From Dehalococcoidia bacterium (lineage in GTDB: Bacteria; Chloroflexota; Dehalococcoidia; Lucifugimonadales; G965248475), in contig OZ252106.1 in NCBI GenBank assembly GCA_965248475.1, positions 1,775,640 through 1,839,639 of the forward strand: a stretch of DNA of 64,000 bases, given 5' to 3'. Shown here piece by piece: positions 36,413 through 53,879 of the stretch. Numbering within the stretch: position 1 is the stretch's first letter; each line of letters starts with the position of its first letter. The notes beneath the pieces are model-generated. The model ran no database searches. It worked only from the letters and a program-made list of their open reading frames with translations, and had not been told where the DNA came from. Both the position numbers and the translations under genes were made by a program.

Positions 36413-36426
36413 CCTGTCCTCCTAGT

Positions 36427-38110: not shown

Positions 38111-38111
38111 C

Positions 38112-39004: not shown

Positions 39005-39017
39005 CTGATTGTCCTCC

Positions 39018-39350: not shown

Positions 39351-39353
39351 TGG

Positions 39354-39429: not shown

Positions 39430-39464
39430 GGGGTGGTTTGACGGTGTTGAACAGACACCCTAAC

Positions 39465-39719
39465 ATGGCGATGAGTGACCAATCAGCACAGGGGGTAACG
39501 GTGAGGACTTTTACGGCGTATTTAGAGTGGGACACTGAGACGAACCTCTACGTAGGGAGCATACCGGGAATACCCGGCGCTCACAGCCAGGGGGCAACTC
39601 TGGACGAGCTACACCAGAACCTCAAAGAGGTTCTGGTGCTGTGTCTTGAGGAGTACAAAGGAAGCATTGAAGACCTTCCGAACTTTGTGGGCACTCAGCA
39701 GATAGAAATCGCAGTATGA
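39465..39719 (+). CDS. hicB: HicB family antitoxin
   Basis: TAYLEWDTETNLYVGSIPGIPGAHSQGATLDELHQNLKEVLVLCLEE fits the HicB/UPF0150 fold. ATGA overlap with hicA. Confidence 0.8.
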   Translation: MAMSDQSAQGVTVRTFTAYLEWDTETNLYVGSIPGIPGAHSQGATLDELHQNLKEVLVLCLEEYKGSIEDLPNFVGTQQIEIAV

Positions 39720-39949
39720 ACCGGCTGCCCACCATTGATGCCCGCACAATGGAAAGGGCTTTGTTCCACCTTGGTTTTGAAGCTGTGCGGCAGAGAGGCA
39801 GCCACGTTTTCTACAGACATCCCGACGGCAGAACCACGTCAGTACCCCGACATCCAGGAAGAGATCTAGCGCGTCCGCTAGTCCGTGAGATCCTGAGAGA
39901 AATCGATCTTTCTCCTGCCGATTTCCAAGAGGTGCTTGGGGCGATCTAG
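39716..39949 (+). CDS. hicA: HicA family mRNA interferase toxin
   Basis: 77 aa; GSHVFYRHPDGRTTSVPRHPGRDLARPLVREILREI fits the HicA/YcfA pattern. Confidence 0.88.
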   Translation: MNRLPTIDARTMERALFHLGFEAVRQRGSHVFYRHPDGRTTSVPRHPGRDLARPLVREILREIDLSPADFQEVLGAI

Positions 39950-40265
39950 GAGTGGTCGGGGATTCCGAAATATGACAGGGGGAGCGGCGGTATGTCGTAC
40001 TCCTCCACGTAAGCGAGTAGGGGGTTGTTCGCGGACGGCAAGGGCGTGGTGAACAGGACGTCCTTAAGGGCCTCAAAAGCGATGGTCTCGGCATCATGGC
40101 TGTGACACCCGTGGCGACGGCTGAACCCCCCCGCAGGAAGCCGCGCCGCTCCGGGTCCTGTACGAAGCGTCTTGCTTGCTGGCGCAGGGCATCAGTGGAG
40201 GGATGGCCGATGGGGGTCTGGCCGTTGGGTGCGTCAGTACCAGGGTATTCTCCTTCTCCAGTCAT
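39946..40265 (-). pseudogene. hypothetical 105-aa gene disrupted in a G7 (plus-strand C7) run
   Basis: With one extra G at 40126-40132 the ORF (MTGEGEYPG...IAFEALKDVLFTTPLPSANNPLLAYVEEYDIPPLPLSYFGIPDHS) ends at 39946, overlapping the hicA stop. As sequenced it runs antisense through hicBA. Confidence 0.45.
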
Positions 40266-40268
40266 GTG

Positions 40269-40345
40269 GGTCTCCTGTCCTGTGAAGTAGTGACGGCAGG
40301 ATGGTAGGACAGTCGTGCGTGTACGGGGAAGGGGGGAGATGGCAG
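40269..40345 (-). promoter_or_regulatory. duplicated promoter/leader module, copy P2
   Basis: See P1. It lies directly upstream of the 40265 start. Confidence 0.6.
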
Positions 40346-40366
40346 AGAGTGAGAAACCGCCAACTC

Positions 40367-41146
40367 CTACGTCTGCTGGGCTACTGGTCGAGGTACACGA
40401 ACCTTAAGGTCGTGCTCCTCCACTCCCAGAGTGTTCGATGTGGTGACCCTGAGTCGAACCTGCATGATGGTAGCGCGATTGGGAAGGGTGTCGAACGTTA
40501 CGGTAAACAATCGCGAGGCATGCCGATTCAAGACTTCAAAGTCCCAGCCGTGACTTGCCTCAACTCTGACCCAATAGGGGGGCTCACTTGAAACTTCAAT
40601 TTGAATATGTTCGTAGGGGATGAGACCAATGTTGTGGGCCCGTACCGTACCCGCAACGGCCCGGTCGCGAACGACAAGCAGCGGCAGTACCTTCCGCTCC
40701 AAGTCGTTCGAATCAGTGTCCCACTCAAGGAGCATTAACGGAGGGCGCAGTCTGGGAACCTGGTTGGCGGCCACACCCACGATTGCAATGACTGTCCCGA
40801 TCGTTACGGCCAATATAACGACAACGTCGCTTCGGTCGTCTACGACTGACCAAGGGCTTCCAAGGTCGAGAACGGAGAATACCAGTATGGCCGCGCTAGG
40901 AGGCCCCGTAACGTACGTGAGCAATACTCCGAGTTGTTGGCTCCGGCTTAGCCAAAGCCTGTCGGATGGTCCGAGAGTTCGATACACGAAGCGATACACA
41001 CCAGGCAGGAGTACCGTGAGTATCACGGCAATAAGTCCAACGATAGACCGTGTGAAAGCGCTGACGACGCTGATGGTCGCTATAACCATGAACCAGACAC
41101 CGCGAAGTGCGGCACCTATCGTTTGGAGTGCTCGCCGGATTGTCAC
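40367..41146 (-). CDS. hypothetical membrane protein (about 4 TM + C-terminal beta-rich domain)
   Basis: 259 aa with N-terminal hydrophobic helices and a soluble beta-type tail. A+T-richer than flanking DNA. Confidence 0.55.
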   Translation of the reverse strand: MTIRRALQTIGAALRGVWFMVIATISVVSAFTRSIVGLIAVILTVLLPGVYRFVYRTLGPSDRLWLSRSQQLGVLLTYVTGPPSAAILVFSVLDLGSPWSVVDDRSDVVVILAVTIGTVIAIVGVAANQVPRLRPPLMLLEWDTDSNDLERKVLPLLVVRDRAVAGTVRAHNIGLIPYEHIQIEVSSEPPYWVRVEASHGWDFEVLNRHASRLFTVTFDTLPNRATIMQVRLRVTTSNTLGVEEHDLKVRVPRPVAQQT

Positions 41147-41287
41147 ATGGCGGATTATACAGCGACGTCAGAGCCAAATAATCGGCCAGACAGACCCGGA
41201 GCTGGAGTGGGCGCGGCAGGACGAAAGGGTGAGAAGGCTGCTGGGTATGGAGGAATAGCTATGGTCGCTACTGGGCTAATAGTAGAA

Positions 41288-41701
41288 CTAACGCCGATGG
41301 AAAAACGCCTCGGTTAGTTTTACCCATACGATCCCCATCATAAACAGTATCACCACAAGCCCGATCAAGGAGTCAACAGATCTTTCGTGGTAAAGAATGA
41401 CGGCATTATCCAGGGCGGCAGGTAGCAATGCAAAGGTGATCACCCCTCTAATGAGCGTCCAAACCTGACCCTCAGCCCAACTATTCCAAGAATAGAACCG
41501 GCGGGCACCCATGTTTCCCAGAATGACCGCTATCACCCCAATTACTAGAAACCCAACAATTACAACACCAACGTCCCAAATCCGGATGGAAGCCCGGACG
41601 CCAATGGACGTTACGGACCAGAAGAGAATCCGCACCCTCCATCGCTGAGGTAACTTCAGCCAAGTTCCCCAGAGTTTTCGCATCCAACCCACGGCAATCA
41701 A
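41288..41701 (-). CDS. hypothetical membrane protein (about 4 TM)
   Basis: 137 aa and W/I/V-rich. Co-oriented with the gene at 40367-41146. Confidence 0.5.
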   Translation of the reverse strand: MIAVGWMRKLWGTWLKLPQRWRVRILFWSVTSIGVRASIRIWDVGVVIVGFLVIGVIAVILGNMGARRFYSWNSWAEGQVWTLIRGVITFALLPAALDNAVILYHERSVDSLIGLVVILFMMGIVWVKLTEAFFHRR

Positions 41702-41746
41702 CCCCCATAGTCACTGCTGCGCTGAGCCTAACACAACACCCCTGCC

Positions 41747-41892
41747 CCAGATTCTTCGTCCCGACTTTATCGGGACTCAGAATGACAGGACCCGCTCATG
41801 TCCTTCCCTTCGGCTTCGCTCAGGTCCGATGCCCTGTGGGCATACGGACTCGCGACGAAGTCGGAGATAAACTCGGCTCAGGATGAGCGGGG
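41747..41892. repeat. REP/MITE-like element with long imperfect inverted repeat
   Basis: ccagattcttcg + GTCCCGACTTTATCGGGAC + ctcagaatgac, then arms cccgctcat...atgagcggg (41791-41891). Internal strings are related to the 79-nt core. Confidence 0.6.
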
Positions 41893-42005
41893 CACCGCCT
41901 TAGATGCTTCGTCCGCGGACGCATGCTGTAGGCAGAGGAGTACAACCAACTCCTCAGCATGACAACCTGAAAAGACGCAAAATGCGCATTACCCGCAGCG
42001 AACGC

Positions 42006-42034
42006 TTGACATGGCTGTTTCTGCATGCTAGCCT
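42006..42034 (+). promoter_or_regulatory. candidate promoter with AATGCGCA operator-like motifs
   Basis: TTGACA, 17 nt, TAGCCT. A perfect palindrome AATGCGCATT at 41981-41990 and a half-site AATGCGCA at 42035-42042 flank it. Confidence 0.35.
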
Positions 42035-42082
42035 AATGCGCAGAACCCGCAAGACACGCAGAATAAGCGAAAGGGGTGTGGG

Positions 42083-42286
42083 ATGAATGTCACGGCTGTA
42101 GCCATGAGGGGAGTAAACCTAGCCCCAGTAATGACCAAGGTGGGAGCACGACTCCACTACGTATCAAGATCACCCGAAGTACGAGACGCGTCCCGCAGGG
42201 TGGGTGAGGCGTTCGGTGAGGTCTGGACGCGTTTCCGTGACCTGGGAGACTCGGTCACCGAAGCATGGCATGGCGTGGACTACTAA
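42083..42286 (+). CDS. hypothetical small protein (67 aa)
   Basis: Weak AAAGGGG RBS. First ORF after the candidate promoter. Confidence 0.3.
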   Translation: MNVTAVAMRGVNLAPVMTKVGARLHYVSRSPEVRDASRRVGEAFGEVWTRFRDLGDSVTEAWHGVDY

Positions 42287-42327
42287 AAGGCCAACAAAGA
42301 GGACAAGGGTTAAAGAGGGAAAGAAAA

Positions 42328-42795
42328 ATGAGGATTGGGAAGACGGACTTTGAGGTGGGGAACATGGGTAGGGTGCATCAGGCGGTGCTGGACGCGGTGC
42401 CCAATGAGGAGGCTATCGAGGAGTCGGAGCTGCGCGCCGCCTACGACAAGGTGTCGGAGGATGACAAGCCCCCTTTCGAACAGGTAATGAAGAACCTGTC
42501 GCACCTGGTCAACGAGAGGCGGATAGATGGTCGCACCTTCTATCGCAAACGGGTGTGGCTGTCCAGCGCGGAGGTGTCCCGCCGACTGGAGGTGTCTATG
42601 AGGACGGTGCAGTCGTGGGGGCAGCGGGGTGTGATGGGGGCGCGGTACGTGGGCGACCGTCTGCGGTTCGCCACGGAGCAGGTGGAGGAGTGGGTCCGTG
42701 GCAGGCGCAGCGGCGTGGCGACGGCCCAGCCCGGCTCTTCTACGACCACGCAGGTGTGGGATAACGAAAGGGACGCACAGTATGACCGAATATAG
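42328..42795 (+). CDS. excisionase/MerR-type HTH domain protein, putative antitoxin-like partner of MazF-like toxin
   Basis: GAGGGA RBS. LSSAEVSRRLEVSMRTVQSWGQRGVMGARYVGDRLRFATEQVEEWV resembles the HTH_17 excisionase-type domain. 14-nt overlap with the next gene. Confidence 0.55.
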   Translation: MRIGKTDFEVGNMGRVHQAVLDAVPNEEAIEESELRAAYDKVSEDDKPPFEQVMKNLSHLVNERRIDGRTFYRKRVWLSSAEVSRRLEVSMRTVQSWGQRGVMGARYVGDRLRFATEQVEEWVRGRRSGVATAQPGSSTTTQVWDNERDAQYDRI

Positions 42796-43120
42796 TCGTG
42801 GAGACGTGGTGCTGGTGCGCTACCAGGCAACGGCTGAGGAGGAGGCGTGGCTGAGGCCCGCCGTGGTGGTCAGCTCCGAGACGTATCACCAGGGTCGCGG
42901 ACAACTGCTGCTGGCGGCCGTTACCAGCAGTGAGCGGTCGCTGGAGCCCGGCGACACGGTGGTACAGGGGTGGCAAGAGGCCGGCCTGCTTGGAGCGTCG
43001 CTGGTGACGGGGGTGCTGCTCACGGTGGAGCCGGAGGTGATCGAGCGGCGGCTGGGTGTGCTGTCGGCGCAGGATGCGCAGGGCGTGGAAAGCAGCCTGC
43101 GGCTGAGCCTGGGTGTGTAG
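42782..43120 (+). CDS. PemK/MazF family toxin
   Basis: GDVVLVRY...RPAVVVSSETYH...LLLAAVTS matches the PemK fold pattern; 112 aa. Confidence 0.78.
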   Translation: MTEYSRGDVVLVRYQATAEEEAWLRPAVVVSSETYHQGRGQLLLAAVTSSERSLEPGDTVVQGWQEAGLLGASLVTGVLLTVEPEVIERRLGVLSAQDAQGVESSLRLSLGV

Positions 43121-43150
43121 GTAGGCAGGGCACTACCGTTTTCTTCCCAC

Positions 43151-43175
43151 GCAGGGCGTGCCCTGCACCCATAAT
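43151..43175 (-). repeat. REP-like palindrome family B
   Basis: gcagggcgtgccctgcacccataat, the reverse orientation of the 23201 copy. Confidence 0.8.
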
Positions 43176-43220
43176 CTCAGGGAGAAGAAGCGGTCTTTCA
43201 CGTAGGCAAGAGGAGTAGAG

Positions 43221-43424
43221 ATGATTAATTGGATTCCGAATTTCATACGCCCTGGAGTCGCCCTGCTAGCCATCGGGCTGGTGGCGGTGCTTGTGGCGAG
43301 CATGGCGGAGGCGCTGATCAAGCTAATTGGCTACGCTCTGATGATCGCAGGTTTCGCCGTTATCGTCGTTGGACTGATGAAGCGGTGGAGGCGCCCACGG
43401 TTCCGGCGAAGGATGGCGCACTAG
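43221..43424 (+). CDS. hypothetical 2-TM small protein with basic tail
   Basis: 67 aa with two hydrophobic helices followed by KRWRRPRFRRRMAH. Confidence 0.4.
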   Translation: MINWIPNFIRPGVALLAIGLVAVLVASMAEALIKLIGYALMIAGFAVIVVGLMKRWRRPRFRRRMAH

Positions 43425-43430
43425 GCGTAG

Positions 43431-43448
43431 GTCCCGACCTGTCGGGAC
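43431..43448 (+). terminator. GTCCCGAC-CT-GTCGGGAC hairpin (REP family A) after the small TM gene
   Basis: Perfect 8-bp arms 7 nt after the stop codon. Same stem sequence as the hairpins at 2237, 37809 and 41758. Confidence 0.4.
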
Positions 43449-43512
43449 ACCCATATTTCTCAAGAACCGGACAGGTCGAATGGTAGGAACTTACTATTTG
43501 GAGGTATCGAAT

Positions 43513-43809
43513 ATGAAGGTAGTCAAGCAACACAACCTATCTCAGGAAGAGGCTACAAGAAAGGTTAGCCGTTTGCTCAAGCGATTGGTGCAGCAGTACG
43601 GTGGGGAGATCGCTGATCCTATCAGTGTGTGGACGCAGGATACGCTGGACTTCTCTTTCCGAACCTGCGGCATGAGTTTCAAAGGTAAGGTCGAGGTCGG
43701 CGAGTCGGATGTGACACTTGACCTTGGCATACCGCAGTTTGCGGAACCTTTCGAGGGAGGGATACGGTCTAGTGTTGAACGCGAACTCAGTTTCCTCTTT
43801 CCACACTGA
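43513..43809 (+). CDS. small protein resembling PHA-granule-region (PHA_gran_rgn) family
   Basis: GGAGG RBS. 98 aa with H.L..EEA..KV..L...L...YG....W....L.F......G..GKV.V....V.L.L pattern. Confidence 0.4.
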   Translation: MKVVKQHNLSQEEATRKVSRLLKRLVQQYGGEIADPISVWTQDTLDFSFRTCGMSFKGKVEVGESDVTLDLGIPQFAEPFEGGIRSSVERELSFLFPH

Positions 43810-43841
43810 GCCGAGAGCAGAGATAATAAAGGAGGCATGCT

Positions 43842-44214
43842 GTGGCAAAGAAGAAGGTGTTCATCAGCTATGAGTATGATCATGACCACCACTTGAAAGG
43901 CAGCTTAATTGCTCAAGCCGAGTGGCCTGATTCTCCATTCTCTATATCAGATTTTTCACTGTAAGGAGTCCACTCCGGACCCCGAATGGTTACGTAAAGC
44001 ACAGAGTAGAATTAGTCGTTGTGATGTCGTTGTTGTTCTGCTTGGACCAAATACCCACAACGCATCAGGCGTACGGAAAGAAGTCAACATTGCCGAGGGT
44101 CTTGGCAAGCCTAGGTTCCAGCTCAGGCCTCAAGGCAGGCTCTATGGGAAGGTAAAGAATGCTGGAGAGGTACATGCCTGGAAATGGAAGAACCTGAAGG
44201 AGCTGCTGGCGTAG
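43842..44214 (+). pseudogene. TIR-like domain protein (DUF1863 / MTH538-type), +1 frame break next to a T5 run
   Basis: Part 1 is VAKKKVFISYEYDHDHH...SISDFSL followed by TAA. Part 2 in the +1 frame is KESTPDPEWLRKAQSRISRCDVVVVLLGPNTHNASGVRKEVNIAEGLGKP. Joined length 123 aa fits DUF1863. Confidence 0.6.
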
Positions 44215-44216
44215 CT

Positions 44217-44642
44217 GTGACGGACTCCGAATCTGCCAGGATAGAGCACCTGAAGCTCATCCAAGCCGTGATCGCGCGGATGGCCCGGAACTCCTTTGCT
44301 ATCAAGGCAGCCGCATCAACAATAACCGCTGCTCTGGTTGCCGTGACTGCAGGCTCAGGAACTCCCCTAGCCGCAATCGGCGGAATACCACTCATTATGC
44401 TATGGCTATTGGACGGGTATTACCTACGTCAAGAGCGACTGTTCCGCGAGCTATTCGACTTCGTGAGCACGGGCCAGCCTCCTGAACCAGGTAGCGAAGC
44501 CTACTTCTCCATGAAAACCGAAGGCCTTCATTCCAAAGCTGGCAGCCTGCAGCGAATATTGGTCAGAGGAACGCTACTGGCCTTCTACGTACCATTGCTA
44601 CTTATACTGGCGCTTAGTGCCATATTGGTGAGTCTCACCTAG
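44217..44642 (+). CDS. multi-TM protein coupled to the TIR-like gene (possible SLATT-like effector)
   Basis: GAAGGAG RBS inside the end of the TIR-like gene and a GTG 3 nt after its stop. ARIEHLKLIQAVIARMARNSFAIK amphipathic helix followed by 2-3 TM segments. Confidence 0.5.
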   Translation: MTDSESARIEHLKLIQAVIARMARNSFAIKAAASTITAALVAVTAGSGTPLAAIGGIPLIMLWLLDGYYLRQERLFRELFDFVSTGQPPEPGSEAYFSMKTEGLHSKAGSLQRILVRGTLLAFYVPLLLILALSAILVSLT

Positions 44643-44888
44643 CCCGTTTCAGCTCCCTCCCACCCATCCACCCTCCTGCGCCGTCGCTCCGTCCTGCCCC
44701 ACCCATTCTCCATTGTGTATAATGCGCCCGCCAGAGGAGAGATGAGTGACCCGCGCAAGCCAGCCCAAGCTACGGGCATGCCGTGGGCCATCTATAGTTA
44801 GCACCAATCCAAAGTAACCTACGCAAGGGCAACGAGGCGGACGGGACAGGCGCACTGCATGACCCCGCCTACCAAGGGAGGTGTCAGC

Positions 44889-45806
44889 ATGACCGAGCAT
44901 ACCGTTCCAACCAAGGCAGAGGTGGAGTCCTACCTGCGGGACCGCCGTAACTGGGGACGCTGGGGAGACAAGGGCTCGGCAGGAGCGATAAACCTGATTA
45001 CGCCTGAGAAGCGCCGGGCGGCTGCGGCCCTGGTGCGATCGGGACGGACTGTATCGCTGAGTCGCCCGTTCCCGGTTACGCCATCCGTAGAGAACCCGCA
45101 GCCAGCACAGCACTTCATGATGAAGAACGATAGGCCCGGCGGATGGGGGTCAGCAACGGACTACTACGGCATACGGTACCACGGCGTAGCTACAACGCAC
45201 ATAGACGCCCTCTGCCACATGTGGAACGCCGACGGTATGTGGGACGGACGGGACCCGGACGACACCATCACATTCAACGGCTCTACCTACGGAACCATTG
45301 ACCAGTGGAGCGACGGCATATTGACTCGCGGCGTACTCCTGGACGTGCCGAAACACAGGGGCAGGCCGTACGTGACGCTGGAGGAGCCGGTCCAGGGCTG
45401 GGAGTTGGATGAGATCGTCAGGGGGTCAGGAGTAACGCTGGAGCCGGGTGACGCCATAATGGTATACAGCGGTCGGGAGGCGTACGCACAGGACCACGAC
45501 GGCGCCTGGGGAGGCCGTCCGGAGCGGGCGGGCCTCCACGCCTCATGCCTGCCATTCATCCGCGACAACGACATATCAATACTGGGTTGGGATATGATGG
45601 ACGCCCAACCCAACGAGTACGACATGCCGTGGTCCGTGCACGCCGTCCTATTCACCTACGGCGTGGCACTACTGGACAATGCGCTGCTCCAGCCCCTGGC
45701 AGAAGCGTGCGCCCAGGAGGCCACATACGAATTCATGCTTACGATCAACCCATTGAGGGTCATAGGAGGCACAGGGTCGCCGGTGAACCCCATCGCTGTA
45801 TTCTGA
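44889..45806 (+). CDS. cyclase family protein (kynurenine formamidase-like)
   Basis: AAGGGAGG RBS. RNWGRWG...GAINLITPE and HIDALCHMW motifs. Confidence 0.85.
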   Translation: MTEHTVPTKAEVESYLRDRRNWGRWGDKGSAGAINLITPEKRRAAAALVRSGRTVSLSRPFPVTPSVENPQPAQHFMMKNDRPGGWGSATDYYGIRYHGVATTHIDALCHMWNADGMWDGRDPDDTITFNGSTYGTIDQWSDGILTRGVLLDVPKHRGRPYVTLEEPVQGWELDEIVRGSGVTLEPGDAIMVYSGREAYAQDHDGAWGGRPERAGLHASCLPFIRDNDISILGWDMMDAQPNEYDMPWSVHAVLFTYGVALLDNALLQPLAEACAQEATYEFMLTINPLRVIGGTGSPVNPIAVF

Positions 45807-45815
45807 GTATTCTGA
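45798..45815 (+). repeat. 2 x 9-bp tandem duplication GTATTCTGA spanning the cyclase stop codon
   Basis: Direct reading gtattctga gtattctga, immediately followed by a REP half-site. Confidence 0.9.
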
Positions 45816-45834
45816 GTTTGAAACCCGCCCCTAC
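45816..45834 (+). repeat. REP family C half-site (GTTTGAAACCCGCCCCTAC)
   Basis: Right arm of the GGGCGGGTTTGAAACCCGCCC palindrome, 15 nt upstream of the RAYT-1 start. Confidence 0.8.
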
Positions 45835-45849
45835 AAAATGTGCAATGCC

Positions 45850-46383
45850 ATGGCATACGACCCAGACAGACACCACCGACGTTCCATCCGGCTACCCAGA
45901 TATGATTACAACCAGGCAGGTGCGTATTTTCTCACTATCGTTGCATATGATAGGCAATGCGCCTTCGTCGACATCGTAGATGGGAACATGGCGGTGAACA
46001 GATACGGGCAGGTTGTGTCAGACGGTTGGGATGATCTGGTAAACCACTATCCACATGTTGCCCTAGACTCATTTGTGGCCATGCCCAACCATATACATGG
46101 AATCATTGTATTGAATGACGAGGTATGGGCGGGTTTGAAACCCGCCCATACCAAACGTCACCCTCTGTCGGAGATCGTTCGTGGATTCAAGACCTTCTCA
46201 TCACGACGCATAAACCAGATACGCAACACCCCAGGTCTGCCGGTATGGCAACGCAACTACTATGAGCACGTGATCCGCAGCGAAGACGAAATGGACGGCA
46301 TCCGCCAGTATATTCTCGACAATCCTTTGAAGTGGCCCAAGGACGAAGAGAACCCTCAAAATGTCCAGAAAATGCCATCGTAG
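45850..46383 (+). CDS. REP-associated tyrosine transposase-like (IS200/Y1 HUH family), copy 1
   Basis: HUH motif MPNHIHGII and catalytic-Tyr region WQRNYYEHVIR. Paralogous to 48192-48725. Confidence 0.85.
   Translation: MAYDPDRHHRRSIRLPRYDYNQAGAYFLTIVAYDRQCAFVDIVDGNMAVNRYGQVVSDGWDDLVNHYPHVALDSFVAMPNHIHGIIVLNDEVWAGLKPAHTKRHPLSEIVRGFKTFSSRRINQIRNTPGLPVWQRNYYEHVIRSEDEMDGIRQYILDNPLKWPKDEENPQNVQKMPS
46123..46151 (+). repeat. 29-bp REP family C palindrome inside the RAYT-1 coding sequence
   Basis: gtatgggcgggtttgaaacccgcccatac has 14-nt perfect arms and encodes VWAGLKPAHTK. Confidence 0.9.
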
Positions 46384-46396
46384 GGGCGGGTTTGAA
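46381..46396 (+). repeat. REP family C half-site overlapping the RAYT-1 stop codon
   Basis: taggggcgggtttgaa. Confidence 0.75.
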
Positions 46397-46473
46397 GGAC
46401 TTAAGCCCGATCTGGAGCGCCTGGCCACAACCTCCACTCCCATACCGCTGCTGGACGTCCTGCTACAGCCGCC

Positions 46474-47170
46474 TTTGCCGAGGCCGGGCAAGATCCTGTG
46501 CTGCATAGGCAACTACTGGGAGCATATGCAGAGGGACGCCCGCCCGCTGAACATGTTCCTCAAGAACCCGGACGCTGTGATCGGCCCGGGGGATACGATA
46601 GTGCTGCCGAAGTTCGAGGAGCCGTATGTATTCCACCACGAGGCGGAGCTCGCTATCGTCATCAAGGGACCAGCCAAGGAGATCAGCCAGGCCAACCATA
46701 TGGACGCGATATTCGGATACACCTGCCTAATAGACGTATCGGCAAGGGCCGAGGGACGCAGCACCTGGCGCTCAGGGAGCTGGATGGGCAGGTCGTTCGA
46801 CACATTCGCACCGCTGGGGCCTTGCATTGTCACAGCCGACGAGATAGAAGACCCCAACGACGTAGAGGTCAGATTCTGGAATAGAGGCGAGCTTTACAAC
46901 CTGTACAGCACCGGCGACATGGAACACCGGGTACCGGAGCTGATAGAGTTCGCAACGACCATAATGACGCTGAACAGCGGAGACGTGATATCGTGCGGGA
47001 CCAACCATGAAGGGCTTGGGCCGCTACAGGACGGTGACGTCGCTGAGATCGAGATCCAAGGGGCCGGACGCCTGTCTGTAAACGTATCTGACCCGCTGAA
47101 GCGCAGCTGGGAGCGCGGCATCTACGTGGGGCCAAGCTCCACCGCTCCAGCCGCGCGGGGACAACGATAG
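46474..47170 (+). CDS. fumarylacetoacetate hydrolase (FAH) family protein; N-terminus uncertain or truncated
   Basis: PGKILCCIGNYWEH, HHEAELAIVI and DVSAR FAH motifs. The ORF is open back to 46361, inside RAYT-1 and its REP. TTG 46474 is the first start past the REP. Confidence 0.8.
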
Positions 47171-47231
47171 GGATTGCGTCGTCGTGAGATACTAGAGGAC
47201 AACAGCTTTCACGGAGGTACCTTTCAGGCCA

Positions 47232-48122
47232 ATGGAGCAGAGACTTCAATACAGATGCGATTCCGAGGACCTGTGGCTCAAGGTGGGGGACATGGACATG
47301 CACTACCTGGACTGGGGCGGCACCGGTGAGCCGGTTGTGGCGCTGCACGGGCTAGCTTCCTCATGCCACTGGTACGACCTGGTCATCCCATACCTTACGG
47401 ACAGGTTCAAGCTCGTGGCACTGGACCAGCGCGCCCACGGCCAGACGGAGCAGCCATCCACAGGCTACGACTGGGACACCCTGGCCGGAGACGTGGTGGC
47501 GGCACTCGACCAACTGGGGCTTGAACGCGCCGCAATCTTAGGCCACTCCTGGGGAGCAAGCGTCGCCCTTTCAGTAGCAGCCCTTCACCCTGACCGTGTG
47601 AGTGCGCTGGCCCTGATTGACGGAGGGTTCGGCGCAGGCCCCCGCTCCCCGGATATGACGTGGGAGGACTTCAAGGCACGACTAAGCCCGCGCGACATCT
47701 ACGGCCCGGCTGGTCGGTACCTCGGCGCACTCCAAAGGCAGTTCGACCACTGCTGGTGCAACGAGTTGGAGCATATGGTTATGTCCATGGTGGGCATAAA
47801 TCCCGATGGCACGACGTACGAGCGGCTGCAGCCAGAGAACCACGAGCAGGTCCTGTGGGCTATGTGGTCTGACCCCACCTCACAGAAGCTTCCCCAGGTA
47901 CAATGCCCCACAATCTTGGTCGCGGCAGAGCGCCGCCCACGTGATGGTAACGAGGAGTTTCTCAGGCGCAGGCAGGAACAGGTCAGCGCCGCCCAGGCGA
48001 TCATTCCGAACTGCCAGGTGGCCTGGATAGCGGACTCCAGCCACGATATAGGGTACGAGAAGCCCAAAGAGCTGGCGGACGTGCTGGCGAGCTTCCTGAG
48101 CAACAAGGCAACACGCATTTAG
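47232..48122 (+). CDS. alpha/beta hydrolase
   Basis: HGLASS oxyanion region and GHSWGA nucleophile elbow; 296 aa. Confidence 0.85.
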   Translation: MEQRLQYRCDSEDLWLKVGDMDMHYLDWGGTGEPVVALHGLASSCHWYDLVIPYLTDRFKLVALDQRAHGQTEQPSTGYDWDTLAGDVVAALDQLGLERAAILGHSWGASVALSVAALHPDRVSALALIDGGFGAGPRSPDMTWEDFKARLSPRDIYGPAGRYLGALQRQFDHCWCNELEHMVMSMVGINPDGTTYERLQPENHEQVLWAMWSDPTSQKLPQVQCPTILVAAERRPRDGNEEFLRRRQEQVSAAQAIIPNCQVAWIADSSHDIGYEKPKELADVLASFLSNKATRI

Positions 48123-48147
48123 GGACGGGTTTGAAACCTATCCATAC
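48119..48147 (+). repeat. REP family C, degenerate copy overlapping the hydrolase stop
   Basis: ttagggacgggtttgaaacctatccatac. Confidence 0.7.
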
Positions 48148-48153
48148 TCCCCA

Positions 48154-48173
48154 GGGCGCGGTTACCGCGCCCC
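48154..48173 (+). repeat. GGGCGCGGTTACCGCGCCC hairpin (a further REP type)
   Basis: 8-bp GC arms, located between the REP C copy and the RAYT-2 start. Confidence 0.6.
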
Positions 48174-48191
48174 TACGAGAGGTCATGGTCT

Positions 48192-48725
48192 ATGGAATAC
48201 GCCCCCAGCAAACACCGTCGCCAATCCATTCGTCTACCCGGATATGGCTACAGCCAAGCCGGAGCGTATTTTGTCACTATCTGCACACGAAACAGGCAAT
48301 GCTTATTCGGAGAGATCCTGAATGAGGAAATGGTACCGAGCAAGTATGGGCAGATTGTATTAGACGGCTGGTATGATTTGGCAAGCCACTATCCACATGT
48401 TGCCCTAGACTCATTCGTGGTCATGCCCAACCATATACATGGCATCATTGTATTGAATGACAATGTAGGGGCGGGTTTGAAACCCGCCCCTACCAAACGC
48501 CACCCATTGTCAGAGATCGCTCGTGGATTCAAGACCTTCTCATCACGTCGCATCAACCAGATCAATAGCACGCCCGGCTTACCTGTATGGCAACGCAACT
48601 ATTATGAACACGTAATCCGCAATGAAGACGAAATGGACCGCATCCGGCAGTACATTCTCGGCAATCCTATGAAGTGGCTGGAGGACGAGGAGAATCCTCA
48701 GAATATCCAGAAAGTACGTTCATAG
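48192..48725 (+). CDS. REP-associated tyrosine transposase-like (IS200/Y1 HUH family), copy 2
   Basis: MPNHIHGII and WQRNYYEHVIR. The central 100 nt are nearly identical to copy 1. Confidence 0.88.
   Translation: MEYAPSKHRRQSIRLPGYGYSQAGAYFVTICTRNRQCLFGEILNEEMVPSKYGQIVLDGWYDLASHYPHVALDSFVVMPNHIHGIIVLNDNVGAGLKPAPTKRHPLSEIARGFKTFSSRRINQINSTPGLPVWQRNYYEHVIRNEDEMDRIRQYILGNPMKWLEDEENPQNIQKVRS
48465..48493 (+). repeat. 29-bp REP family C palindrome inside the RAYT-2 coding sequence
   Basis: gtaggggcgggtttgaaacccgcccctac encodes VGAGLKPAPTK. Confidence 0.9.
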
Positions 48726-48729
48726 TCAT

Positions 48730-48753
48730 GAGGCGGGTTTGAAACCCATCCTG
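48730..48753 (+). repeat. REP family C, degenerate copy just after the RAYT-2 stop
   Basis: gaggcgggtttgaaacccatcctg. Confidence 0.7.
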
Positions 48754-48797
48754 TAACGTGGACACGGGCCAACCCGCCTTGCGCCGCATCATGGGGC

Positions 48798-49487
48798 ATG
48801 CTAACCTTCGCTGCCGTGCCCATCTACGACTTCCATACCCACACCTACCTAAGCGATGGTGTCCTATCCCCTATGGAACTCATACGCCGCGCCTACGACC
48901 GGGGGTACCGGGCTATCGCCATTACGGACCACGTAGGTCTGGCGGATCAGTCGCGTGTAGTCCCGGTGCTGGTAGAGGAGTGCGCCAATGCTATGAGCCG
49001 CTGGGACATCATAGCTATAGCCGGCGTGGAGATAACACACCTGCCTGCGAGTCTGATCCCGGAAGCGGCTGAAAGCGCCAAGGCGCTCGGGGCACAGCTA
49101 GTTGTGGTACACGGAGAGACCATTGTGGAGCCTGTGGAGCCGGGGACCAACGCCTCAGCAGTCGGTTCATCACACGTGGACGTACTGGCCCACCCCGGCC
49201 TTGTCACGGCAGAAGAGGCAACGACTGCCGCTCAGCGTGGCGTGTACCTTGAACTGTCCGCCCACAGAGGACACAGCTTAACCAACGGCCACGTTGTCAG
49301 AGTAGGGCAGCAAGCAAACGCCAGCTTAATCCTGGACTCCGATGCTCACGAACCCGAGGACCTGCTCACGGAGCATATGAAGCGTCAAATAGCAACAGGG
49401 GCCGGAATACAAGAAGAAGACTTAGACACCCTGCTAGACAGCAATCCAAGAAGGTTGCTGGAAAAGCTGGGCTTCCCCTTGCCCTAG
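48798..49487 (+). CDS. PHP-domain (histidinol-phosphatase-like) hydrolase
   Basis: YDFHTHTYLSDG and AITDH metal-binding motifs. Confidence 0.8.
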   Translation: MLTFAAVPIYDFHTHTYLSDGVLSPMELIRRAYDRGYRAIAITDHVGLADQSRVVPVLVEECANAMSRWDIIAIAGVEITHLPASLIPEAAESAKALGAQLVVVHGETIVEPVEPGTNASAVGSSHVDVLAHPGLVTAEEATTAAQRGVYLELSAHRGHSLTNGHVVRVGQQANASLILDSDAHEPEDLLTEHMKRQIATGAGIQEEDLDTLLDSNPRRLLEKLGFPLP

Positions 49488-49536
49488 CCCCTGAAAACAG
49501 CTGACCAGGCAAATAGATACCTGGTCAACACCGGCC

Positions 49537-49680
49537 CTAGCCTCTGCCGATACGGAACACCTTTGTGCTGCATACAGGGCAGACGCCCTGAGTAGCAGGC
49601 CGGCCATTCTTCAGCGTCACACTGGTGGGGTTACGGATCTCCCGCTTAGCTCGGCACTTGAAGCAATATGCATCGGGCAT
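49537..49680 (-). CDS. DUF5679-like zinc-ribbon protein (47 aa), absent from the ORF track
   Basis: Own translation: MPDAYCFKCRAKREIRNPTSVTLKNGRPATQGVCPVCSTKVFRIGRG. CxxC...CxxC pattern, GGGAGGGAGG RBS, TTGACA-17-TTATCT upstream. Confidence 0.75.
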   Translation of the reverse strand: MPDAYCFKCRAKREIRNPTSVTLKNGRPATQGVCPVCSTKVFRIGRG

Positions 49681-49883
49681 TTATAAAGTCCTCCCTCCCT
49701 AGCTTGGAATTGAAGATAAGCCGTATCTAGCGCCCTTGTCAAGCCCTTAGCGGCTTCATTATGGCTCTTGTCAGCCCCTTTTAACACCGTAGCCTATATC
49801 CGCAAGCTAGGCGCCGCTTATATTGGGGCGGTACGCTTGGGTCTGGACCACACGCCGGAGAAGGCCAGGTGGGGCAGGACTAA

Positions 49884-50228
49884 CTAACTAAAGCCCTCTG
49901 CATCCAGCTGGAAACTTGGGGTATGTACCAACAATAACCGGGCAGTATCCTCTGTTCTGTTGACATACGAGAAGCGCTGACCTTGATCTACCACGCAGAG
50001 GTCCCCCGCCGTGAGGTCGTACTCGTCTCCATCGAGCGAGAAAGCGATCCGCCCAGCAACAACGTAGTAGTACTTATCGGACCGCTGTGAGTACGCTTCC
50101 TGGTGCGTCCCGCCTGGCGGCACTTCAACGATCGCAAGGGAAGACCTGGTGTCATGCCCAGCCGTGTAGTCGAGTATTTGAAGGCCATCAAAGTCGATCA
50201 CCTCAGCTAATGCTCGCTTGACTATCAT
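49884..50228 (-). CDS. cupin domain protein
   Basis: 114 aa with a beta-barrel pattern (G..H.E......YYYVV.G...F). Confidence 0.7.
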   Translation of the reverse strand: MIVKRALAEVIDFDGLQILDYTAGHDTRSSLAIVEVPPGGTHQEAYSQRSDKYYYVVAGRIAFSLDGDEYDLTAGDLCVVDQGQRFSYVNRTEDTARLLLVHTPSFQLDAEGFS

Positions 50229-50333
50229 TCGGCTCCCTTCTTGTCATGCAGCGCACCGGAACGCCCCTGGCTCGTGAACACGCGCGCGTTCAACCATCGA
50301 CTTAATGGAAAGCCGTCAGGCAAGGGGCTGCGA

Positions 50334-51278
50334 CTAGGTCAGTACCTTCTCTACGCTGTACGGGGACGGCTCTTTGAGCTGCAGGACTTTGAAGGGCTGC
50401 CAGAGGCTTTGGGGCCTGTTGAACCGCACCAGGGCAACGAACCTGCCGTCTGAGCTGTAGGCCCTACATGTTTCCATATGTTGCGAGTAGTGGGTGCGTG
50501 GCGCCAGAGGCACCGGCTGGCCGTTGCGCACCTGCAGTTCCTCCACATCGCTGAGGAGCACGGCGTTCAGATGAAGCACCAGATAGTCTGGTGGGTAGAA
50601 CAGGGAGGGCCAGGTGTCCTCCTGGTAGGCCTCTTCCAGATGCTCCACTGTAATCGAAGTGTCGGCATGGAAGGGACCCGTCTGCAAACGGCGTAGCTCG
50701 GCAAGGTGGGCACCACAGTCCAGCGCCTGGCCAAGATCGTAGGCCAGGGAGCGAACATACATACCGCGGCTGCACTTGATGGACAGCGACACCAAGGGTG
50801 ACTGCCAATCAACCATGTCCAACTTCATAATCTCAACGGTGCGCGGCTCGATATCCACCTGCACCCCGGCCCTTGCCAGCTCGTGCAGGCGGCGGCCCTG
50901 GCGCTTGAGGGCGCTGTACATTGGGGGCGTCTGCTCAATGGCGCCTCTGAACGATTCCAGCGCGGCCTCCACATCTTCAAGCGTGACGCCGGAAGGGTCC
51001 CTTTCCTCCACGATCCGGCCCTCGGCATCGTAGGTATCGGTGGTTACGCCTAGGCGAACGGTGGCCAGATACTCCTTCTCCCCGTTCACCAGGTACTCCA
51101 TAAGTCGTGTGGCCTGGCCCATACAGACCGGAAGGACACCGGTGGCCATAGGGTCCAGCGTACCGCCGTGACCGACGCGGCGCTGAAAGGAGACGCGCTT
51201 GACGCGCCTGACCACGTCCATAGAGGTAGGACCACCGGCCTTATCTATGTTGAAGACACCATCCAGCACGGGGCTCAC
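50334..51278 (-). CDS. truB: tRNA pseudouridine(55) synthase
   Basis: GHGGTLDPMATGVLPV catalytic Asp motif. Conserved position after rbfA. Confidence 0.92.
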   Translation of the reverse strand: MSPVLDGVFNIDKAGGPTSMDVVRRVKRVSFQRRVGHGGTLDPMATGVLPVCMGQATRLMEYLVNGEKEYLATVRLGVTTDTYDAEGRIVEERDPSGVTLEDVEAALESFRGAIEQTPPMYSALKRQGRRLHELARAGVQVDIEPRTVEIMKLDMVDWQSPLVSLSIKCSRGMYVRSLAYDLGQALDCGAHLAELRRLQTGPFHADTSITVEHLEEAYQEDTWPSLFYPPDYLVLHLNAVLLSDVEELQVRNGQPVPLAPRTHYSQHMETCRAYSSDGRFVALVRFNRPQSLWQPFKVLQLKEPSPYSVEKVLT

Positions 51279-51658
51279 TCTTTTACCTCCGCAGGCATTT
51301 CCAGGGGCGTCTCCGCCAGCGATGGGGCTCCGTCCATAATGCCGAGCAGTCTGGCGCCCTCCTCCAGGGAGCGGTCCTGCTGGAAGGTCAGGGCCGGAAC
51401 GTAGCGCAGGGTCAGTTTAGGCTTAAGCTCCCTTTGAATGAACCGTGCGGCCGACTGCAACATCTGCATTGCGGAGCGCTGGTCATCTTCGGTCCCCATA
51501 ACGCTCACGAAGACCCTGGCGCGGCGCAGGTCGGAGGAGGTCTCGACGCGGGTGATGGATACGAGGGTAGGAAGTCTGGGATCCGCCATCTGGTTGGCGA
51601 GGACCCAGCTTACCTCCTTGCGCAGAAGCTCACCAACCCGTTCTGTGCGTCTGGTCAT
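51275..51658 (-). CDS. rbfA: ribosome-binding factor A
   Basis: RVGELLRKEVS...DPRL...ITRVETSSDLRRARVFVS pattern. Start chosen at MTRRTER. Confidence 0.9.
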   Translation of the reverse strand: MTRRTERVGELLRKEVSWVLANQMADPRLPTLVSITRVETSSDLRRARVFVSVMGTEDDQRSAMQMLQSAARFIQRELKPKLTLRYVPALTFQQDRSLEEGARLLGIMDGAPSLAETPLEMPAEVKE

Positions 51659-51759
51659 TGAGGGCCTCTCTGGCAATACAGGTCGGCAACCCTGGGGCAA
51701 CAAGGTTATGCCACCAATAACGATATAGTTGGACTATTGTGCCTTGAAGGGGCGGGCGA

Positions 51760-53571
51760 CTAGGCTGGGACCTGGTCGAGCCGGTGGACCTGGATAACGT
51801 CCTCTTCCTGGAAGTCGTCAAACCCGGTCACTGCAATTCCACATTCGTAGCCCGTGGCCACCTCACGAACGTCATCTTTGAACCGCCTGAGGCTGGCGAT
51901 GGGCCCGTCATGGAGCAACTCACCATTCCGCAAGATACGTGCCATAGCAGTCCTGAGCAGGCGTCCATCGGTGACGTAGACGCCCGCTACGTTGGCCTGA
52001 CGGCCCCGCTTGAATACTTCACGTACGGTGGCATTGCCTTCGACAACATCCTGCATCTCCGGCTTGACCAGTCCCTGCAGGACATTGGTGACATCCTCCA
52101 GCAGGTTGTAGATGACGTTATAGAGGCGTATTTCAACACCTTCCGCATCTGCCACTCGCCGGGCACCCGGATCAATCGATGTGTTGAAACCTATGACGAT
52201 GGCCTGAGATGCCACGGCCAGGAATATGTCCGACTCGGAAATCGCGCCGGAGCCGGAATGAATAATATGCACCTGTGCCTTATCCGTACTGAGGCGGGAA
52301 ACGCTGTCCAGAACGGCCTCCGCGCTTCCCTGTACATCAGCCTTGATTATCAGGTTCAACTCCCGGGACTCGCCGGTGCAGATCCTGTTGAACATCTCCT
52401 CCATGCTGACCCGACGGGAAGCACCTTGCTGGCGCTCGCGTTCCTCCACCATTGTCCGTGCCTCACGGTCGCTCCCAGCAACCTCGAAGAGGTCTCCGGC
52501 AGAGGGCAGGTCAGCAAGCCCCAGTATCTCCACGGGCATGGCGGGTGTAGCGGACTTAATACGTTCCCCCGCATAGTTGACCAGGGCTTTGACGCGGCCA
52601 CGGATGGTGCCGACCACAACGTGATCTCCAAGCTCGAGTGTCCCGCCTTTGACCAGTACCGTGGCCACGGGGCCACGACTCCTGTCCAGCTTGGCCTCCA
52701 CGACGACGCCGTTGGCCTGCCTGTCCGGGTTAGCCTTGAGATCCGCAACCTCTGCCACCACCAATATGTTCTCCAGCAGGTCATCTACCCCCAAGCCTGT
52801 TTTGGCGGAGACCTCCACGCCCACCACCTCGCCACCCCAATCCTCCAACAGCAGGTTCTGCTCTGCCATCTGGCGCTTCACACGTTCGGGGTCAGCGTCC
52901 GGCAGGTCCACCTTGTTGATGGCTACAATGATGGGAACATCCGCCGCTCTGATGTGTGAGATAGCCTCCATGGTCTGAGGCATGATGCCGTCGTCGGCAG
53001 CCACCACCAGTACGGCGATATCAGTGACGTCAGCTCCCCGTGCCCTCATAGCGGTGAACGCCGCATGGCCGGGTGTATCCAGAACGGTAATAGGATGGTC
53101 TTTGAACTCGATCTGATAGGCGCCGATGTGCTGGGTAATGCCTCCGGCCTCGCGTTCGGCGACCCTGGTGTTACGAATGGCGTCCAGAAGAGTCGTCTTC
53201 CCGTGGTCCACGTGTCCCAACACAGTCACAACCGGGGGCCGCAGCTTCAGGAGCGCTGCGTCCTCCTCAATCTGGGTACCTTCCTGTACCCGTGACGTGG
53301 TTTCATCTGCCACAGCCCGGTAGCCGTAGAGGGGTGTAATGGCAGACGCCGTCTCGAAGTCGATGGCCTGGTTGATGCTGGCCATGATGCCTGCCCTCAT
53401 TAGGTGTTTCATGACCTCAATGGGGGTGGCGCCAATCAACTCCGCCAGACGGGCCACCGTAATGGCCTCCGGTATCTTTACTGGCCTGGGGGCCGGAGCT
53501 GTCCTTCGCCTGGCACCTTCGGATTCGTTGCCGGGCTGGTCAGATTGAACTTCTGAGTCGCTAGTCACCAA
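51760..53571 (-). CDS. infB: translation initiation factor IF-2
   Basis: [17 protein letters not shown] and NKVD GTPase motifs; 603 aa. Confidence 0.95.
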
Positions 53572-53591
53572 CGTCTGATTGCACCTCCGGG

Positions 53592-53879
53592 TCAGGCTGT
53601 TCGAGCCATTTCCCTGGCATACTCTTCTAGTTGCTGGCGGTCCTCTGGCGACACGCTGCCTCTCAGCGCGTACCCGAGCCGGTCCTTCTTAAGGGCCTGC
53701 TCCCAGCAGGCAAGGGCGTGGCAAAGGTAGGTGCCGCGACCGTTCATCCTGCTCGGGCCGGGGTCTACACCGACATGTCCTTCAGGAGAGCGCACTATAC
53801 GGGTCAACTCTCGCTGAGGAAGCCGGGTCCCGCAGTTCACGCATCGCCTCAGCGGGATATGTCTTTGCCGTACCGCCAC
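53592..53879 (-). CDS. ylxR: YlxR (DUF448) family RNA-binding protein
   Basis: LRRCVNCG...RIV....G.V..D......GRG.YLC pattern. GTG start 25 nt after the nusA stop. Confidence 0.8.
   Translation of the reverse strand: MAVRQRHIPLRRCVNCGTRLPQRELTRIVRSPEGHVGVDPGPSRMNGRGTYLCHALACWEQALKKDRLGYALRGSVSPEDRQQLEEYAREMARTA

Follow-up and report, generated by a model that had tools for sequence, protein, structure and literature searches.

REP-associated tyrosine transposases (RAYTs), which take their name from repetitive extragenic palindromes (REPs), are usually presented as immobile, single-copy, domesticated genes. The passages of Quentin et al. (2018, BMC Genomics 19:475, PMC6006769) that treat subclass 2.4 of the TnpA_REP proteins (TnpA_Y1) report double-foot REPs, with a 5' GT[AG]G and a 3' C[TC]AC, as well as in-frame REP insertions between beta3 and alphaC, both features being given as unique to the subclass; the insertion is highly variable in length and sequence and peripheral in the authors' model, and the subclass is patchily distributed across phyla. 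Here we analysed a 64,000-nucleotide stretch of contig OZ252106.1 from a Dehalococcoidia bacterium (the window, to which all coordinates refer unless a relative is named), in which two co-oriented RAYT-like genes, RAYT1 (45850-46383, + strand) and RAYT2 (48192-48725, + strand), stand on either side of a FAH-family gene and an alpha/beta hydrolase gene. Both are probably members of subclass 2.4, on the strength of a double-foot REP and an in-frame loop REP of the kind those passages describe, plus the taxonomic pattern. We put the probability at about 0.85 that the locus consists of two separate subclass 2.4 REPtrons (RAYT genes flanked by their hairpins) that arrived separately around ordinary chromosomal hydrolase genes.

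Compared with subclass 2.4 as set out in those passages, the locus differs in nothing essential. The HUH motif with a single catalytic tyrosine, the W/Q/E/H/R block for GTAG, the double-foot REPs, the in-frame REP and the patchy distribution are all shared; RAYT1 carries a foot variant (GTAT...ATAC). The architecture was already described in 2018 and our additions are modest: counts of positional fixity, covariation in 20 perfect hairpin variants and a forbidden reading frame across the family and, at the locus itself, a compensated foot change, empty-site evidence for the gain of a RAYT unit, a truncated neighbouring gene and a short gene-conversion patch.

The Escherichia coli TnpA_REP/REP-BIME system (BIME, bacterial interspersed mosaic element; Ton-Hoang 2012, PMC3333891; Messing 2012, PMC3479197) is alike in fold, in catalytic residues and in having GTAG-footed hairpins flank the gene, the arrangement called a REPtron. 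In the E. coli protein, Y115 is catalytic and N119 a metal ligand, W94, Q95, E100, H101 and R104 recognise the GTAG foot, and one cleavage site overlaps CTAC. E. coli REPs are imperfect and require a stem mismatch, whereas the window hairpins are perfect and double-footed; moreover, the E. coli gene has no internal REP, its product carries a C-terminal extension, and sequence identity to the window proteins is only ~22%.

Insertion sequences of the IS200/IS605 family (IS608, ISDra2) share the Y1/HUH fold, a one-gene unit of ~0.6 kb between hairpins, and gain at a new site relative to related genomes. The window unit differs from them in lacking the separate imperfect subterminal hairpins, with their guide sequences, that such elements have at the left and right ends, in having its junctions inside hairpins with 201 bp of target lost where a clean insertion 3' of a target tetra- or pentanucleotide would be expected, in copies that are 20% diverged rather than near-identical, and in best profile and structure matches to TnpA_REP. 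GTAG-tagged palindromes are also known to be tolerated in frame inside ORFs (open reading frames; Di Nocera et al. 2013, PMC3733652). Those insertions lie at varying sites in unrelated genes (uvrA, recB, dnaE and others); in the present family the REP occupies one fixed site in the gene for its own nuclease. Group 4 RAYTs of Bertels et al. are common in Cyanobacteria, Chlorobia and Caldilineae; it is plausible that the window family corresponds to that group, an equation we do not claim.

Two TnpA_REP-like genes and their hairpins

Each gene encodes a TnpA_REP-like Y1/HUH protein of 177 amino acids. RAYT1 has an alternative ATG at 45838, RAYT2 is intact in the window, and the two share 74% amino acid and 80% nucleotide identity in the same orientation. 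Against Pfam Y1_Tnp (PF01797, gathering threshold 23.0 bits) RAYT1 scored 23.4 bits and RAYT2 25.3 bits, both above threshold by a small margin. MPNHIHGII and WQRNYYEH occur in both ORFs. PNHIHGII is the HUH motif, as a preliminary description made from the sequence had it: H81-I-H83 in MPNHIHG is invariant in A1, an alignment of 32 homologues out of ~8000 from a protein search, and belongs to strand E81-88 in an AlphaFold2 model of RAYT2 (mean predicted local distance difference test, pLDDT, 80.9). The same description took YYEH for the tyrosine region, which needs correction. W133-Q134...E139-H140..R143 in VWQRNYYEHVIR align to E. coli W94/Q95/E100/H101/R104, making WQRNYYEHVIR the GTAG-recognising block, and the catalytic tyrosine is Y154 in RQYILGNP with N158 beside it; these two residues align to E. 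coli Y115/N119 and are invariant in A1. The best PDB match of the RAYT2 model was 4ER8, the structure of E. coli TnpA_REP bound to a REP hairpin (Foldseek E = 1.8e-6, TM 0.54-0.58), and IS200/IS605 TnpAs followed at ranks 2-30. The identification of both ORFs as RAYT-like Y1/HUH proteins with a TnpA_REP fold is supported.

The RAYT genes have a G+C content of ~50% compared with ~61% in their neighbours. Among 5.8 billion proteins the closest to RAYT1 is RAYT2 (74%), with the next match at 71%, so that the two are old paralogues. No third RAYT copy was found in the 64-kb window; an Rfam scan of 44500-50000 returned no family and a tRNA search of 36000-52000 no tRNA.

The palindrome GGGCGGGTTTGAAACCCGCCC (the window REP is also written as GTAGGGGCGGGTTTNAAACCCGCCCCTAC) had five matches in the window against none expected by chance. 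Its two perfect copies lie inside the RAYT ORFs, at 46127-46147 and 48469-48489, where they code for V-[GW]-A-G-L-K-P-A-[PH]-T. In RAYT1 the full double-foot REP (46122-46152) reads GGTATGGGCGGGTTT G AAACCCGCCCATACC, a perfect 15-bp stem coding for V-W-A-G-L-K-P-A-H-T; folded as single-stranded DNA it gave -17.8 kcal/mol (z = -8.2). The RAYT2 counterpart (48465-48493), GTAGGGGCGGGTTT G AAACCCGCCCCTAC, has a perfect 14-bp stem, codes for V-G-A-G-L-K-P-A-P-T and folded at -16.4 kcal/mol (z = -6.9); written through, it is GTAGGGGCGGGTTTGAAACCCGCCCCTAC, with GTAG at the 5' foot and CTAC at the 3' foot. The RAYT1 foot is GTAT/ATAC instead, the result of a compensated G>T plus C>A that keeps the base pair while altering both residues (G>W, P>H). 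It is the sole T-A pair at stem position 4 among the 20 hairpin types found across the family. Both in-ORF hairpins occupy codons 91-101, between HUH strand E81-88 and helix H106-125 of the RAYT2 model. Residues 92-97 of this loop have a pLDDT below 50 and form the only internal low-confidence stretch of the model, as expected of a disordered surface loop.

Outside the ORFs the copies are degraded. RAYT1 stands between half REPs. The upstream flank of RAYT2 (48119-48176, + strand) comprises a degenerate REP, TTAGGGACGGGTTTGAAACCTATCCATAC (48119-48147), and a different hairpin at 48154-48176, GGGCGCGGT T ACCGCGCCC with a CTAC foot, and folded at -14.2 kcal/mol (z = -2.6). The downstream flank (48731-48779, + strand) holds a degenerate REP with three mismatches, AGGCGGGTTTGAAACCCATCC (48731-48751), and a distal complementary arm, AACCCGCCT (48771-48779), with no significant fold (z = -0.96). 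All four flanking REP copies in the window are thus decayed and both in-ORF copies perfect. Measured by the REPtron arrangement, RAYT2 has degenerate REPs on both sides plus a CTAC-footed hairpin upstream, and RAYT1 has half REPs on both sides. Intact flanking copies occur in many of the 80 homologous RAYT loci that we compared, drawn from Chloroflexota, Nitrospirota, Planctomycetota, Cyanobacteria, Proteobacteria, Zixibacteria, Patescibacteria and other phyla. The preliminary description had placed a repeat copy or half-copy at each gene boundary; this holds for the half and degenerate copies, but the perfect copies are inside the ORFs and none was found at the boundary between the FAH-family and hydrolase genes.

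REP feet also double as gene terminators at two places: the stop codon of RAYT1 (46381-46383) is the TAG of the downstream GTAG foot, and that of the hydrolase gene (48120-48122) is the TAG of a degenerate foot (TTAG).

Probable separate arrival around chromosomal genes

The gene order in the window is putative cyclase, RAYT1, FAA_hydrolase gene, Abhydrolase_1 gene, RAYT2 and PHP-domain phosphatase, so the preliminary description was right that exactly two genes separate the RAYTs. The FAH-family gene (46361-47170, + strand; Pfam FAA_hydrolase, 4e-47) is not intact. Its homologues are ~311 amino acids long and begin MKLVLF..., whereas in the window ORF homology starts only at 46387 (GFEGLKPDLERL...), the native start and ~51 codons having gone. 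The sole ATG that can open the frame, at 46361, lies inside the 3' end of RAYT1, which would leave the first nine codons chimeric. The alpha/beta hydrolase gene (47232-48122, + strand; 296 amino acids; Pfam Abhydrolase_1, 1.6e-24) has a 296-amino-acid orthologue following the FAH gene in three close relatives. These (L081, a 129-kb JGI contig; L082, from ENA; and L083) were fetched as the genomic contexts of the closest FAH homologue, P0122, which is 93% identical. The more distant homologues P0141 and P0125 (L084-L087) have unrelated contexts and are uninformative on the cyclase-FAH site.

In L081 and L082 the genes run cyclase, FAH (311 amino acids), Abhydrolase (296 amino acids), a RAYT remnant (a small ORF or weak Y1_Tnp match), PHP, DUF5679, TruB, RbfA and IF2. 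The gene table of L083 gives FAH and Abhydrolase, and in all three relatives the cyclase-FAH-hydrolase order has no RAYT upstream of FAH. In blastn alignments, window 44875-45807 matched L081 5019-5951 at 92%, window 46387-49853 matched L081 6153-9580 at 88% and L082 1204-4666 at 89%, and window 50319-53642 carried on the match; the same blocks matched in L082 and L083. Homology to all three relatives stops at 45807 and restarts at 46387. The segment between (45808-46386, 579 bp, REP-gene-REP) is the RAYT1 unit, which stands in place of 201 bp in the relatives (L081 5952-6152), namely a 50-bp cyclase-FAH spacer and the first 51 FAH codons, including the start codon and ribosome-binding region. 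RAYT1 is therefore absent from the cyclase-FAH site in the three relatives, and the FAH gene is truncated in the window only.

RAYT2 has a different history. It lies inside a continuous alignment and is therefore orthologous in L081 and L082, whose copies are 93-94% identical to it in nucleotide sequence (RAYT1 and RAYT2, 80%); in blastn terms this site has diverged no differently from the genes beside it, at about 88-89%. Both orthologues are pseudogenes with a shared in-frame stop, and L081 has an additional 35-bp deletion. Since RAYT1 is absent from and RAYT2 shared by relatives with the same synteny, the arrivals of the two RAYTs were separate in time, and the two genes between them, FAH and hydrolase, belong to a fixed chromosomal synteny; on this sequence comparison they appear to be ordinary chromosomal genes and not cargo. 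The locus offers a data point for the turnover of subclass 2.4 REPtrons, in which one unit was gained at the cost of a neighbouring metabolic gene while an older copy decayed in sister genomes.

The preliminary description had suggested a composite-transposon-like pair, in which two co-oriented RAYTs and their REPs would mobilise the FAH-hydrolase pair jointly. What speaks for it is the bracketing of exactly two genes by co-oriented paralogues, REP-derived sequence at outer and inner boundaries, and the existence elsewhere of co-oriented RAYT pairs that enclose unrelated genes (in L011 a kinase, in L034 a toxin-antitoxin-like pair). We consider joint mobility very improbable. Three relatives have the cyclase-FAH-hydrolase order with FAH intact and RAYT1 missing, and in L081 and L082 it continues through PHP, TruB, RbfA and IF2; RAYT2 is orthologous in these two genomes where RAYT1 is absent; the copies are only 80% identical; the supposed cargo gene FAH is itself truncated by the RAYT1 unit; and the half REPs that form the outer flanks are decayed and show no fold. 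The comparison with relatives thus gave the very outcome that this description had named as refuting its proposal, with the cassette order kept and the RAYTs arriving independently.

A second alternative would place RAYT1 at the cyclase-FAH spacer in the common ancestor, from which it was cleanly lost in L081, L082 and L083, leaving only the 201-bp FAH deletion specific to the window. RAYT1 and RAYT2 have diverged further (20% of nucleotides) than the window has from its relatives (8-12%), which means that the duplication predates the split of the genomes and that RAYT1 existed somewhere in the ancestor; no closer donor of RAYT1 was found among the 5.8 billion proteins. Yet the 50-bp spacer in L081 and L082 contains no recognisable REP or RAYT remnant, the empty site is common to three relatives, and a scarless, precise loss of a 579-bp unit is less parsimonious than a single gain. 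Ancestral presence followed by loss is accordingly an unlikely history, although a somewhat better candidate than joint mobility.

The two ends of the RAYT1 unit are unusual for a Y1 enzyme. At the left junction (45807-45834, + strand) the cyclase stop ...GTATTCTGA precedes another GTATTCTGA(G), so that a second cyclase 3' end, GTATTCTGAG, takes the place of the REP 5' arm; then comes the half REP at 45814-45834, consisting of the loop and 3' arm TTTGAAACCCGCCCCTAC with a CTAC foot, which does not fold (z = 0.07). At the right junction (46380-46396, + strand) a REP 5' arm plus loop, GTAGGGGCGGGTTTGAA, runs directly into FAH at codon ~52, GGACTTAAGCCC, and here too the fold is no better than that of shuffled sequence. 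Intact relatives have GGCTTTGATGAGCTTAGGCCC here (S-G-F-D-E-L-R-P; SGFEGLKPE in the closest protein, P0121), which places the break in a short stretch where the REP arm and loop resemble FAH coding sequence. Such junctions may reflect illegitimate or microhomology-type events, either insertion with deletion or insertion then deletion, rather than clean Y1 cleavage and joining.

In the sequence of events that we favour, each REPtron consists of a small Y1/HUH tyrosine nuclease gene closely flanked by copies of its cognate double-foot REP (GTAG...CTAC) and holds a further, in-frame REP in the surface loop that joins the HUH strand to the following helix. RAYT2 is an old resident of the hydrolase-PHP spacer that has decayed to a pseudogene in related genomes, and RAYT1 a diverged paralogue that entered the cyclase-FAH spacer in the window lineage only. 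The 201 bp may have been lost through the RAYT1 insertion itself or through a later deletion from the downstream REP loop to a GGGTTTGA-like stretch of FAH. By homology with E. coli TnpA_REP, the proteins would recognise the GTAG foot and so bind the REP hairpin in single-stranded form, cleaving and rejoining nearby.

Several observations weigh against two subclass 2.4 REPtrons of separate arrival. NCBIfam REP_Tyr_transpos (NF047646) gave 66.8 bits for RAYT1 and 69.7 for RAYT2 (E-values 1e-18 to 1e-19), under its equivalog cut-off of 80 bits, presumably because the model was built on proteobacterial RAYTs without the loop insertion; the profile check called for in the preliminary description was thus passed marginally with Y1_Tnp and not with this model. 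No REP copy was found in the remaining ~61 kb of the window, which therefore gives no evidence of a dispersed REP population in the genome. Both junctions of the RAYT1 unit fall within REP arms or loop, away from the hairpin feet, unlike clean Y1-type cleavage. E. coli TnpA_REP needs a stem mismatch and neither binds nor cleaves a perfect palindrome, so that its mechanism is not simply transferable to perfect double-foot hairpins. Finally, RAYT1 might, as discussed above, have been ancestral at the cyclase-FAH site and lost from the relatives.

A hairpin kept inside the reading frame

To describe the in-ORF hairpin across the family, we counted perfect stems of 9 bp or more whose loop did not exceed 8 nt in 83 homologous genes, with other stretches of the same genes as controls. 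Such a stem was present in the protein loop region of 59/83 homologues, compared with 1/82 and 2/83 in the control regions, and a hairpin occurred at the same position in 59-66 of the 83. Stems of at least 14 bp, found in 38 genes, represent 20 distinct 14-bp hairpins of the form GTAGGGGC-N6...N6'-GCCCCTAC, all of them compensated: stem positions 1-8 are almost invariant (GTAGGGGC/GCCCCTAC), and positions 9-14 each show up to four Watson-Crick pair types, always with the complementary change. As to reading frame, 25 genes have the G of GTAG at codon position 1 and 17 have it at position 2; position 3, which would put TAG in frame, was used in none.

Among the closest homologues the encoded peptide is itself conserved. 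VGAG[LF]KPAPT is nearly invariant in A1, tandemly repeated in some members, with A94, G95 and P98 invariant, and the palindrome could on that account be a mere by-product of the conserved peptide VGAGLKPAPT, free of any constraint on the nucleotides. We regard this as having next to no chance of being right. In distant members the loop peptide is wholly different (RGGSRTAPT, GTLQRAPT, VLQYAPT, VGAQHAAPL, VGAHGRAPL, VGAKNFSPL, VGAIHELPL, GADPCVCP and others) while the DNA is again a perfect palindrome in each; wobble bases pair with wobble bases and complementarity is kept; two reading frames are in use and the TAG-creating one never; the palindrome sequence also occurs outside genes; and the compensated double change in RAYT1 (G>W, P>H) keeps the base pair. 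Because of the covariation counts, the peptide by-product reading is refuted, and the in-ORF palindrome is, on sequence evidence, kept as a hairpin at the nucleotide level.

In many of the homologous loci the same palindrome also stands outside the gene, before it at a distance of 30-140 nt, after it at 10-60 nt, or farther off. The exact 29-mer of the window has 83 copies in 80 metagenome loci, 3 inside RAYT ORFs and 80 outside, 60 of the latter being more than 1.5 kb from any RAYT. (Of the 83 dispersed copies, 35 are spanned by stop-to-stop ORFs 150 or more amino acids long, a count that is ambiguous in GC-rich DNA and was not used.) With most copies outside RAYT ORFs and many in the flanks, the internal palindrome would be a copy of a dispersed, GTAG-tagged REP family, and its identification as the REP of these RAYT genes is supported at sequence level. 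A literature search for the motifs GTAGGGGC and GCCCCTAC returned unrelated papers only.

These family-wide counts sharpen a little-known observation, a REP inside its own nuclease gene, into the question of whether the element is selected, or tolerated and renewed. It is conceivable, though we think it rather doubtful, that the in-ORF REP is a selected cis-element and not a tolerated insertion, a "master copy" that makes nuclease and substrate genetically inseparable. Several findings are consistent with selection: the site is fixed across phyla, the 20 variants are perfectly compensated, hairpin type tracks protein sub-type, the TAG frame is absent, the in-ORF copies are perfect compared with four decayed flanks in the window, and the hairpin is starting to decay in the pseudogenised L082 orthologue. 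Continual renewal of the in-ORF REP, by the enzyme's own re-insertion or exchange at a pre-existing REP, fits the evidence equally well and would also explain the in-frame tandem arrays of REP arms in L005, L045, L049 and L080. If the master-copy reading were true, every RAYT moved by horizontal transfer would carry a seed REP matched to its specificity, the in-ORF REP could give the enzyme a handle on its own gene (autoregulation or hairpin recombination), and co-oriented REPtron pairs, as in 6/80 loci, could occasionally mobilise the genes between them.

Tandem REP arms translated in frame, either in the loop or at the C-terminus, were seen in the four loci just named and in proteins P0013, P0017 and P0095, with arrays such as NVGAGFNPD repeated 2-4 times and RAGLE repeated about eight times. 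REPs appear to multiply beside REPs even within an ORF.

A minority of homologues (L007, L008, L010, L013, L027, L030, L037 and L079) have a short loop without a palindrome. Most of these belong to Cyanobacteria (Microcoleus, Calothrix) and some to Deinococcales and Capsulimonadaceae, so that the in-ORF REP is not universal in the family.

By eye, particular hairpins go with particular sequences in the following helix: GGTTCG/CGAACC with ..KPLGRLIGAFKTVSTK (L005, L012, L018, L024, L038, L040 and L053), GAAAAA/TTTTTC with ..TIGSIVRGFKIGVTKW (L033, L052 and L071), and GCACGG/CCGTGC with ..SLGSFVAGFKS (L034, L038, L047 and L080). This tracking of hairpin type and following helix across phyla suggests co-inheritance or co-evolution of REP type and protein sub-type.

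Possible exchange between the copies, paired loci and neighbouring segments

The preliminary description had noted a near-identical centre and a diverged 5' part in the two RAYT genes, and the alignment agrees: identity is 88-95% over 46038-46200 and 57-75% in the 5' part. At third codon positions it is 0.90-0.95 for codons 61-100, compared with 0.55-0.65 for codons 1-60 and 0.5-0.6 for codons 111-140. Within the centre, a 17-nt tract of RAYT2 (48395-48411, + strand; gene nt 204-220; counterpart 46053-46069 in RAYT1) differs from both orthologues at 8/17 nt and equals RAYT1 at all eight (permutation p = 0.0002). This tract is best read as short-patch gene conversion, which could have taken place between RAYT1 and RAYT2 in the window lineage or may have come from another paralogue in the sister lineage.

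Recent gene conversion was also considered for the whole of the central identity and rejected, as RAYT1 shows the same similarity, 0.88-0.90, to RAYT2 and to the L082 orthologue over most of the region and only nt 204-220 are specific to the window. Given this equal distance over most of the block, the similarity is old or constrained, and we infer short-patch gene conversion plus constraint for the centre. Of the gene conversion or mosaic origin envisaged in the preliminary description, the 17-nt tract is therefore what stands, most of the central similarity having another source.

Two co-oriented RAYT genes within 10 kb of each other occurred in 6/80 homologous loci (L011, L024, L034, L038, L053 and L057), always in the same orientation; L051 is also paired, one of its copies containing a stop. 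The bracketed genes include a 778-amino-acid Ser/Thr-kinase-like ORF (L011), a 534-amino-acid ORF (L057) and, by eye, small toxin-antitoxin-like ORFs (L034 and L051). Such pairing may stem from insertion targeted to REPs, from a replication-strand bias or from joint mobility on occasion. With these pairs and a reported 1.3-1.8 RAYT copies per replicon (Bertels et al. 2017), the initial view of a RAYT pair as unusual is weakened.

The 35-bp deletion in the L081 orthologue of RAYT2 (~8240-8260) begins inside the 3' CTAC foot of the internal REP, after GCCCCT. It may have been left by the nuclease acting on the in-ORF REP, or the match may be coincidental.

Immediately upstream of the cyclase, synteny with the relatives is lost (window 41800-44875, set against L081 1-5018). 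L081 carries a perfect REP, GTAGGGGCGGGTTTGAAACCCGCCCCTAC, at 4950-4978, upstream of the cyclase and ~40 bp from the break; farther upstream it has Sulf_transp and TusA genes with no match anywhere in the window. The window has instead small genes of lower G+C: HTH_17 excisionase-like (42265-42795), PemK/MazF toxin (42698-43120), PHA_gran_rgn (43480-43809) and weakly ThsB_TIR-like (43909-44214). Window 41800-44875 may be an island inserted or exchanged at a REP, with no tRNA nearby. On the other side of the locus, L081 and L082 lack a 465-bp segment of the window (49854-50318) that holds a Cupin_2 gene (49884-50228, minus strand); in both, the homologous blocks on either side are only ~29 bp apart.

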